A DNA stretch of 53,782 bases. It comes from an uncultured Bacilli bacterium. Its GTDB lineage: Bacteria > Bacillota_I > Bacilli_A > RF39 > UBA660. Both the position numbers and the translations under genes were made by a program. Under the pieces are notes generated by a model. It made no database searches, had not been told where the DNA came from, and saw nothing but the letters and a program-made list of their open reading frames with translations. Below are positions 32,761 to 33,750 of the stretch, one piece after another (position 1 is the stretch's first letter; each line of letters starts with the position of its first letter). The DNA lies in contig CANQBF010000002.1 of assembly GCA_947588895.1 (NCBI GenBank), positions 1 to 53,782 on the forward strand, given 5' to 3'.

Positions 32761-33750
32761 ATGGATAAAAAAATTTTAGATAAAAATGAATTAGAAAAGT
32801 ATTTTTTAGAGAAAGAGTATAATTGTTTAAAACCCCATTCAATAGTAAATAATAATGATACCATTTTTGTAAGTGCAGGTATTCAACCAATTTTAAAAGA
32901 TTATTGTGAATATAAAATAAATGAGTGTGAAAAAATTTATATTGCTCAACCAGTTATTAGAACCCAATTTGCTAATTCTGTATCTGAAGGTTCATCCATT
33001 GCTTTTGTTAACTTAACAACATCCGGTTTTAATATTACAGAAGAAAAGCACAATATATTAGTTCAAGATTTTTTTGAACTTTTTTCTATATTAAACATGA
33101 AAAAAGAAGAAATAGTAAAAAAAGAAGATGAATATGAAGATATTTGGGGAAGTATACAATTGTCCGGTAAAAGAACTTTTTATTATTATAAAAATATTGA
33201 AATCGGAGATACAACTTTTTTTACTAAAATATTAAAAGGTGATAAAAAAATTGGAATTGAGACAATGAGTGATGTTGGTTTTGGCTTAGAAAGAATTAGA
33301 TGGCTTATAAATGGTGGCTCGTATTTTAATTTATATTCTGATTCTGCTAAAATAGATAATTATATAAAAGCATATTTATCAGTACTTTCTTTATTAAGAG
33401 TTAATGATATAAAACCTTCAAATAAAAATTGTGGATATCGTGCTCGTTTATTTTCAAAAAAGTTAGTAAATTTACTAAAAGCTAGACCTTTAAGTTTTGA
33501 GCTACAAAGCTATTTAATAGAAGCTTTGAAATATTGGAAAAATTGGCAAGATGTAAATCACGAAATTGAAACCAATATTATAGAGCAAGAGTATATAAGA
33601 AATTGTAATCGATATATTATTGATATTTTATTAAGCGAAGGATATGATAATTTAAGTGGCATTAATATTAATGTTTCATGGGAAGAATTTCAAGAAAAGT
33701 TGTTAGCATCAAACGTTGAACCAGAAAAGATAAAAAAATTATTAAGATAG
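32761..33750 (+). CDS. Stand-alone alanyl-tRNA-synthetase catalytic-core paralogue (class IIc aaRS-like)
   Basis: [13 protein letters not shown] (cf FTNAGMNQFKD), AQPVIRT (cf SQRCVRA), [16 protein letters not shown] (cf [15 protein letters not shown]), [12 protein letters not shown] (cf [12 protein letters not shown]). Only 329 aa; no editing or C-Ala domains. Confidence 0.65.
   Translation: [329 protein letters not shown]

Follow-up and report, generated by a model that had tools for sequence, protein, structure and literature searches.

A truncated relative of alanyl-tRNA synthetase in a conserved trio with an archaeal-type SAM synthetase and an S51 hydrolase

Why would a bacterium keep a relative of alanyl-tRNA synthetase (AlaRS) that lacks the editing and C-Ala domains? 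The question is raised by a gene encoding 329 aa (32761..33750, + strand) in a 53,782-nucleotide stretch of DNA, hereafter the window, from an uncultured Bacilli bacterium of the RF39 lineage (assembly GCA_947588895.1, contig CANQBF010000002.1). The G+C content of the window is about 23%. The original prediction, made from the sequence alone, proposed a free-standing, neofunctionalised AlaRS paralogue. The conserved length of the protein, its coupled neighbours and its conserved catalytic residues uphold this proposal. What the prediction overlooked is the strongest clue of all: the AlaRS-like gene belongs to a conserved, horizontally spread trio, together with a dedicated archaeal-type S-adenosylmethionine (SAM) synthetase (MAT) and an S51 hydrolase. 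By analogy with the AcmD/AcmF/AcmE system described below, we tentatively propose that the AlaRS-like protein is a putative active aminoacyl ligase or transferase that acts with the S51 protein on a SAM-derived or adenosyl small molecule.

The conserved trio and its distribution

In the window, the AlaRS-like gene is the middle member of what its sequence presents as a tight three-gene operon, with its own promoter and genes coupled through their ribosome-binding sites (RBSs). It is preceded by the gene of an archaeal-type MAT (31490..32752, + strand), whose likely true start is the ATG at 31499, giving 417 aa as in homologues. It is followed by the gene of a 229-aa S51 peptidase/class-I-glutamine-amidotransferase-like serine hydrolase (33759..34448, + strand). 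The AlaRS-like gene runs from an ATG to a clean TAG stop. Its AGGAG RBS lies 6 nt 5' of the ATG and overlaps the stop codon of the upstream gene, and 8 nt separate its own stop from the S51 gene, to which it is translationally coupled. A sigma-70-like promoter, TTGACC-17-TATAAT (31428..31456, + strand), precedes the operon; it was identified by consensus match only, at 11 of 12 positions. Just upstream, an AT-rich hairpin with a T-run (around 31336-31362) closes the preceding gene, and the next promoter-like site, TTTACA-17-TATAAT with a TG element (34552..34580, + strand), marks the end of the operon. Searches with Rfam revealed no riboswitch or T-box in the window, nor 5' of the trio in seven related loci.

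The partnership extends far beyond this genome. Two scans, in which each GTDB species was represented by a single genome, yielded 77 loci, which tblastn and clustering of open reading frames (ORFs) reduced to 72 non-redundant loci with an AlaRS-like gene, the window included. In the first scan, MAT and S51 adjoined the AlaRS-like gene in all 24 loci. Across the whole set, MAT is found in 63 and S51 in 60 of the 72 loci, with most misses at contig ends. If the count is limited to the 35 loci that extend at least 4 kb in each direction, 34 have MAT within 5 kb, 31 have S51 within 3 kb, and 30 have both. The trio spans Bacilli, the candidate phyla radiation (CPR), metagenome-assembled genomes (MAGs) labelled as Proteobacteria, and DPANN archaea. 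Its gene order varies: the three genes are colinear in Bacilli, while in Parcubacteria a convergent MAT gene comes after those of the AlaRS-like and S51 proteins. The flanks of the trio in Bacilli are unrelated between genomes. Natural fusions join the AlaRS-like protein to S51 (P0229, 568 aa), and S51 to a GT4-like glycosyltransferase (L037, at 8951-10663, L038 and L039; L numbers are our loci). In the flanks of the loci, tblastn for canonical alaS gave none, its single match (L080) being an ordinary AlaRS caught by the pattern scan.

The family of the AlaRS-like protein is large and nameless. One search among protein clusters at 90% identity returned 158 clusters, none of them named, whose full-length members have 323-356 aa. 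An exhaustive profile search of 50%-identity representatives returned 384 proteins at E<=1e-3, of which 284 reached E<=1e-10; full-length AlaRS was not among the best 150 profile matches. Most of these representatives have 360-420 aa because of an N-terminal extension of 50-90 aa. This extension occurs in most non-Bacilli members, from CPR and DPANN (e.g., P0153, P0166, P0227 and P0250), and is missing from the window protein; some of the extensions contain a zinc-ribbon-like motif, CxxC...CxxxxC. Going by record titles, the hosts comprise low-GC gut Bacilli or "Tenericutes" MAGs, many classes of CPR/Patescibacteria, MAGs labelled as Gamma- or Alphaproteobacteria, and, among the DPANN archaea, Woese-, Nano- and Micrarchaeota. 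Public annotations call the proteins of the trio "hypothetical" or "type 1 glutamine amidotransferase-like," and we found no description of the AlaRS-like family or of the trio in the literature searched. Searches of plasmids and viral contigs returned no relatives of the AlaRS-like protein; therefore, we see no sign of an origin in mobile elements or phages. The PADLOC defence models matched neither the trio nor its neighbours.

The MAT of the trio is readily recognised (Pfam PF01941, 6.6e-102, 341.8 bits). It matches archaeal MATs in the PDB at about 1e-64 and, aligned to MjMAT, shows the motifs GHPD, NDTS, GDEGxVGRGNR and GKNPVxHxGK. It is 69-75% identical to the MATs of related Bacilli loci, and it falls below the cut-off of every NCBIfam MAT model, four equivalog and one subfamily (312.8 vs 481). 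Two features set it apart. One is an insertion of about 18-20 aa in the gating, or flexible, loop (31892..32020, + strand; MAT residues 135-177), between the adenine-binding Asp and the NDTS motif. It is present in all 60 trio-linked MATs, including those of archaeal loci, and the stretch aligns to no solved MAT. In TkMAT, the flexible loop comprises residues 145-155 and N161 binds the Met carboxylate (PMC3853416), and in MjMAT the gating loop includes D146 (PMC9298006). The other feature concerns the H-x-N site that binds the Met carboxylate (31667-31675; MAT residues 60-62), which is replaced by R-H-M in 46 of the 60 trio MATs. The 14 that keep H-H-N are those encoded beside an inositol-phosphate synthase and a GT4 glycosyltransferase. 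In one contig (L001), a canonical bacterial metK (13429-14583, - strand) with a SAM-I riboswitch (14630-14754, - strand) lies 4.5 kb from a trio whose MAT has no riboswitch, so two unrelated SAM synthetases coexist in this genome and are controlled differently. By its sequence, the trio MAT is a dedicated rather than a housekeeping enzyme and forms a distinct subfamily. Since its catalytic motifs are otherwise intact, we take it to be a putative active adenosyltransferase with altered gating or substrate handling.

The third protein is a member of the S51 family (Pfam PF03575, 9e-23, 81.4 bits vs a cut-off of 23.9), with Lmo0363 and PepE as its PDB matches, and it scores below the NCBIfam equivalog cut-offs for PepE and cyanophycinase. 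Its candidate catalytic triad is formed by S119 (in GGSAGA), H159 (in CH) and E186, in motifs conserved in 58 sequences. In two loci labelled as Alphaproteobacteria (L067, at 9090-9761, and L072), a Zeta-toxin/AAA_33-like kinase gene lies between the AlaRS-like and MAT genes, in the usual place of S51.

Fold and active site of the AlaRS-like protein

Judged from a single sequence, the similarity to AlaRS is weak. A Pfam scan of the 329-aa protein gave no match at E<=0.01, which leaves it below the threshold of PF01411. The NCBIfam model of archaeal AlaRS, TIGR03683, matches residues 214-278 at E 7.7e-4 (17.8 bits vs a cut-off of 744.7), and phmmer against the PDB finds the AlaRS 2zze at E 0.001, across motif 3 and the PSN..GY helix. 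A narrow profile of 37 sequences gave marginal AlaRS matches only. An AlphaFold2 model built from 37 homologues has a pLDDT of 91.1 and a pTM of 0.89. When it was superposed on known folds with Foldseek, the top 26 PDB matches were all AlaRS, as catalytic fragments or full proteins, from A. fulgidus, A. aeolicus, E. coli, P. horikoshii and human (best E 2.4e-12, query TM 0.57-0.68); bacterial GlyRS-alpha (TM about 0.4) and archaeal AsnA came behind them. The fold is thus that of a class II AlaRS, at an identity of 12-19% only in these structural matches. A profile of 249 family members aligns with E. coli AlaRS 1-461 at a probability of 98.1% (hhalign, E 1.2e-13), from residue 1 to 322 of the query and 1 to 407 of E. 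coli AlaRS. Pfam tRNA-synt_2c (PF01411) is touched weakly by 20 of 31 diverse family members, at best at 4.1e-9. The relationship to AlaRS is far beyond chance. The motif-by-motif correspondence noted in the original prediction is real, on the evidence of the model, Foldseek, the 249-member profile and the tRNA-synt_2c matches; motif pairs, including one that begins with AGIQ, are kept in the profile alignment.

The architecture differs in part from what had been predicted. Residues 1-190 form the class II aminoacylation core, and residues 191-329 a helical domain equivalent to the tRNA-recognition domain of AlaRS. The protein had been called a catalytic core that stops early in this second domain; in fact it covers the domain to about E. 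coli residue 407 and retains most of it, including the PSN..GY..R element. The closest structural and profile match is the catalytic fragment of AlaRS (E. coli 1-461; A. fulgidus 3wqy; the alpha part of the split AlaRS of N. equitans), with which it shares the class IId core, the order of motifs and the helical domain. It is about 110 residues shorter, and lacks the Cys-rich GPCGPC loop along with the next 20 or so residues, as well as the K73 loop. The loss of the Cys cluster had been correctly recognised, as had that of the editing (HxxxH/CxxxH) and C-Ala domains; in the window, the next gene is that of the S51 hydrolase. Both domains are missing in all relatives of about 330-420 aa, so their absence is the native architecture of the family.

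Residues were mapped to E. coli AlaRS (mature numbering) through the profile alignment. We take R69, W170, N212, V214, D235 and G237 of E. coli to be the alanine-pocket residues, with D235 presumably holding the alpha-amino group of the amino acid. Four of the six are kept: R69 as R67, in the first strand of motif 2 (QPVIR, 32947..32961, + strand), in which Q63, P64 and R67 do not vary throughout the broad family; W170 as W129; and D235 and G237 as D171 and G173, in motif 3 (DVGFGLER, 33271..33294, + strand), which also provides the motif-3 Arg, R178. The motif-2 Arg and the Asp of DTGMGLER, singled out beforehand for inspection, are thus both conserved. F82 corresponds to the adenine-stacking Phe of the second strand of motif 2, a strand whose register is ambiguous. 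The positions R67, F82, W129, D171, G173 and E177-R178 are invariant or conserved at 90% or more, and the adenylate site as a whole (R67, F82, E147, R178, D171 and W129) is conserved across bacteria and archaea. The changes cluster in the EIGDTTFF strand (33199..33222, + strand), which corresponds to E209-I-W211-N212-I-V214-F-M of E. coli: W211 is replaced by G149, N212 by D150, and V214 by T152 (Ala in most relatives). G149 and D150 are conserved at 90% or more in 69 loci. Taken together, the conserved and the changed residues suggest that the adenylate-type site works and that its side-chain pocket has been remodelled. D150, at the N212 position near the adenylate linkage, could neutralise a sulfonium or an amine.

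The evidence on tRNA recognition is mixed. An 11-residue segment of the helical domain (33415..33447, + strand) corresponds to an 11-residue segment of the acceptor-stem-binding domain of AlaRS, and the PSN..GY..R element is kept; we take the Asn of PSN to be the residue that reads the G3:U70 minor groove in AlaRS. The loop bearing K73, which in E. coli presumably lies next to the 3' end of the tRNA, is replaced by another 11-residue stretch, and the D400 position has no Asp. The pI and net charge of the helical domain are uninformative on RNA binding, and the tRNA competence of the protein is uncertain.

Function of the trio and rival explanations

The original prediction recognised no free-standing catalytic paralogue of AlaRS, yet one has been described, and it provides our best guide. 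In ascamycin biosynthesis by Streptomyces sp. 80H647, the AlaRS AcmD charges tRNA, the truncated AlaRS-like protein AcmF moves Ala from Ala-tRNA to the sulfamate of a 5'-modified adenosine, and the alpha/beta hydrolase AcmE removes the aminoacyl group (PMC12945691). Compared by its published description, AcmF is likewise truncated to the aminoacylation and tRNA-recognition domains. The cast of the trio is analogous, with an AlaRS-like protein, an S51 hydrolase, a MAT that makes an adenosyl compound and, often, a seryl-tRNA synthetase (SerRS). The differences are also clear. AcmF has lost most residues for the activation of ATP and Ala (N219Q, D232E) (PMC12945691), whereas the window family keeps D171, the motif-2 Arg and the motif-3 Arg (at 90% or more) and has Asp, not Gln, at the Asn position. 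The hydrolase is S51 instead of alpha/beta, the linked aminoacyl-tRNA synthetase (aaRS) is SerRS instead of AlaRS, and the hosts are CPR, DPANN and gut Bacilli instead of actinomycetes.

The variable neighbours of the trio give further hints. A canonical SerRS (Seryl_tRNA_N plus class II core) is encoded no more than 5 kb from the AlaRS-like gene in 25 of the 72 loci (including L003, L009, L018, L041-L063, L064 and L076); no other aaRS is enriched near the gene in this set. It directly follows S51 in three Bacilli loci (L003, at 11685-13019, L009 and L018), is divergent upstream in many CPR, and turns up in archaeal loci and in a MAG labelled as Gammaproteobacteria as well; it is missing from the window. 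In a survey of tRNA genes, those for tRNA-Ser were mildly enriched near the trio (L001, L029, L030 and L070), and no dedicated tRNA gene was consistently linked to it. In Bacilli, rel and the genes of MetRS and of a class Ib aaRS are among the neighbours. The tailoring genes differ between lineages, with GT4, myo-inositol-1-phosphate synthase (adjoining MAT in six loci) and Amidohydro_2 among them. Others are a gene for a HAD phosphatase (Hydrolase_3), which overlaps the S51 stop, and PIG-L.

These observations suggest the following course of events. The trio MAT would supply SAM or a close adenosyl derivative. The AlaRS-like site would then attach a small amino acid to an acceptor that is itself a small molecule, most likely the adenosyl or SAM compound derived from MAT, rather than to tRNA-Ala for translation. 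The amino acid would most plausibly be Ser, Ala or Gly, and we favour Ser because of the SerRS linkage. The acyl donor would probably be an aminoacyl-adenylate made by the enzyme itself and, less probably, Ser-tRNA charged by the nearby SerRS, much as AcmF uses Ala-tRNA; the ATP-dependent route is favoured because the protein keeps the activation residues that AcmF lost. The S51 protein may act as an amidase or esterase on the same conjugate, for its release, activation, self-protection or proofreading, and lineage-specific tailoring genes may decorate the product. A constant core, fusions, variable tailoring, patchy spread across domains and a dedicated MAT fit a traded small-molecule module better than a translation factor. 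We also count the missing tRNA-contact elements (the K73 loop, D400, C-Ala and the editing domain) as suggestive of an acceptor other than tRNA. That one operon should encode both a ligase and a hydrolase for the same bond calls for a rationale; AcmF/AcmE is one precedent. Glutathionylspermidine synthetase/amidase (GspSA), in which the ligase and the amidase of one bond are fused, is another and could explain the pairing and fusion of the AlaRS-like and S51 proteins. The folds of GspSA (ATP-grasp and CHAP) are unrelated to theirs, and its substrates are known.

Several points weigh against this proposal. The product, the substrate, the activity and the binding of SAM by the AlaRS-like protein are what we infer rather than observe, and the MAT could serve only to supply a methyl donor. 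A role directed at tRNA would be just as compatible with the helical domain and its PSN..GY..R element, and with the nearby SerRS and tRNA-Ser genes. Some Bacilli co-transcribe the trio with a probable housekeeping serS, beside rel, a context that resembles core metabolism more than the making of a specialised compound. Neither an exporter nor a regulator accompanies the trio consistently, and the window itself has none of the tailoring genes.

The alternatives can be weighed on the same evidence. We think it unlikely, if well worth considering, that the AlaRS-like protein docks the acceptor stem of tRNA-Ser or tRNA-Ala, with SAM as a co-substrate, for non-canonical charging, conversion of Ser-tRNA, or proofreading aided by S51. 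Such a role would account for the retained helical domain, for SerRS linkage in several phyla and arrangements, for the nearby tRNA-Ser genes and for the rel, MetRS and class Ib aaRS neighbours of Bacilli. It would also suit the P0229 fusion, where S51 follows the helical domain in the place of the editing domain of AlaRS. Yet the K73 loop, the D400 equivalent and C-Ala are gone, no tRNA gene is consistently linked, and the patchy spread, reminiscent of horizontal gene transfer, together with sugar, inositol and carbamoyl tailoring, is atypical of a translation factor; the dedicated MAT with its remodelled gating loop is left unexplained. Less likely still is a ligase resembling MshC, the aaRS-derived, ATP-dependent enzyme that puts an amino acid on a small-molecule amine in the mycothiol pathway, with bacillithiol as a related case. 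The acceptor would then be an amino-sugar or inositol glycoside, S51 a deacetylase or amidase exposing or recycling the amine, and MAT the supplier of a later step. The mycothiol genes follow the logic Ino1, MshA (GT4), MshB and MshC, and the same logic can be read from some of our loci, with GT4 adjoining or fused to S51, myo-inositol-1-phosphate synthase beside MAT, and the HAD sugar-phosphatase and PIG-L deacetylase nearby. However, only a minority of loci carry such genes, and the window does not; no methyltransferase is linked, S51 is not known as a family of deacetylases, and the universal partner, MAT, finds no explanation. MshC itself, the Cys ligase of mycothiol, is a paralogue of the class I CysRS, and its pathway is not known to include MAT or S51.

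A third view, which we consider improbable, makes the AlaRS-like protein a non-catalytic regulator or scaffold of the adjacent MAT that senses an amino acid or ATP, with HisZ as the precedent. The strict adjacency and translational coupling agree with it, and the remodelled gating loop could be the docking site. This is hard to reconcile with the conservation across domains of motif 2, motif 3, the amino-group residues and all others needed for adenylate chemistry, free of the catalytic degeneration of HisZ. Moreover, the fusion partner is S51, with its triad kept, rather than MAT, and MAT is on the opposite strand in many CPR loci. HisZ belongs to a series of free-standing class II cores in non-translational chemistry, with AsnA, EpmA/PoxA and the SerRS-like amino acid:carrier-protein ligases; these derive from AspRS, HisRS, LysRS or SerRS and have no known linkage to MAT or S51. 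The least likely explanation, to which we give very little credence, is that the gene encodes a housekeeping AlaRS which has degenerated or been split, as in Nanoarchaeum equitans, or that it is an alaS pseudogene fragment. The domain span does resemble that of a minimal active N-terminal fragment of AlaRS, and the hosts have reduced genomes. Against this stand the very low identity in structural matches, below all curated thresholds, the fixed pocket substitutions, the uniform length in several hundred relatives and a distribution that is patchy, not universal. No ORF for a beta-subunit, an editing domain or C-Ala was found near any of the 72 loci. Both a split AlaRS and a frameshifted alaS are thus rejected on family-wide length, divergence and context; the original prediction had already argued against the latter, rightly, as relatives share the length and the neighbours are coupled.

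If the proposed aminoacylation of a SAM-derived compound holds, it would add a new branch to SAM chemistry and give the active site of an aaRS a new use. Catalytic paralogues of aaRSs were already known to be recruited from translation, with AcmF as the AlaRS-derived case. Among the aaRSs, AlaRS has the most conserved architecture, and AcmF (2024) is the one recruited catalytic paralogue described so far. The present family is much larger than this precedent (about 380 clusters at 50% identity), and what it adds is an intact adenylate site, the obligatory partnership with MAT and S51, the spread across domains in ultra-small symbionts, and abundance in gut Bacilli. It is concentrated in CPR and DPANN with minimal metabolism and in abundant uncultured gut Bacilli; what genomes of this small size retain is usually of importance to life as a symbiont. 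A bolder and rather doubtful version of the proposal is that the trio makes a new aminoacylated SAM or SAM-derived nucleoside, e.g., a seryl- or alanyl-adenosyl mimic of an aminoacyl-adenylate. A SerRS transferred along with the trio would then be the supplier or a resistant target and S51 the activating or immunity hydrolase, in a pathway traded across domains by CPR, DPANN and RF39-like Bacilli.

Other genes around the trio

Two further genes join the trio in some CPR and Gammaproteobacteria-labelled loci. One encodes a carbamoyltransferase of the NodU/CmcH type (L036, L040, at 9847-11505, L069 and L070), the other an Amidohydro_2 protein (L028-L030, L036 and L040). A five-gene arrangement with the trio and both of these genes is common to a Microgenomates MAG and a Gammaproteobacteria-labelled MAG.

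In the window, an ORF of 192 aa assigned to no family (30756-31334, + strand) lies directly upstream of the operon, and before it stands a small protein of 209 aa resembling sigma-70 region 2 (30080-30709, + strand; a weak Pfam match), a homologue of which lies upstream in L015. Downstream, the promoter-like site at 34552 precedes three ORFs of 367, 299 and 95 aa (34610-35713, 35724-36623 and 36625-36912, + strand). The first two have no Pfam or PADLOC match, and are acidic, rich in Glu and Lys, and probably coiled-coil. Near the start of the window, an ORF of 846 aa (115-2655, + strand) has no Pfam family at E<=1e-4. The window also encodes a FemAB-family protein, adjoining argS (25096-26352, - strand), and a GH25 muramidase (36963-38150, + strand), whose hydrophobic, Cys-containing N-terminus resembles a lipoprotein signal by eye. 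FemAB proteins are aminoacyl-tRNA-dependent transferases that build peptidoglycan bridges. Hence, the presence of these two genes indicates that the organism has a cell wall, despite the "Tenericutes" and "Mycoplasma" labels of its relatives.

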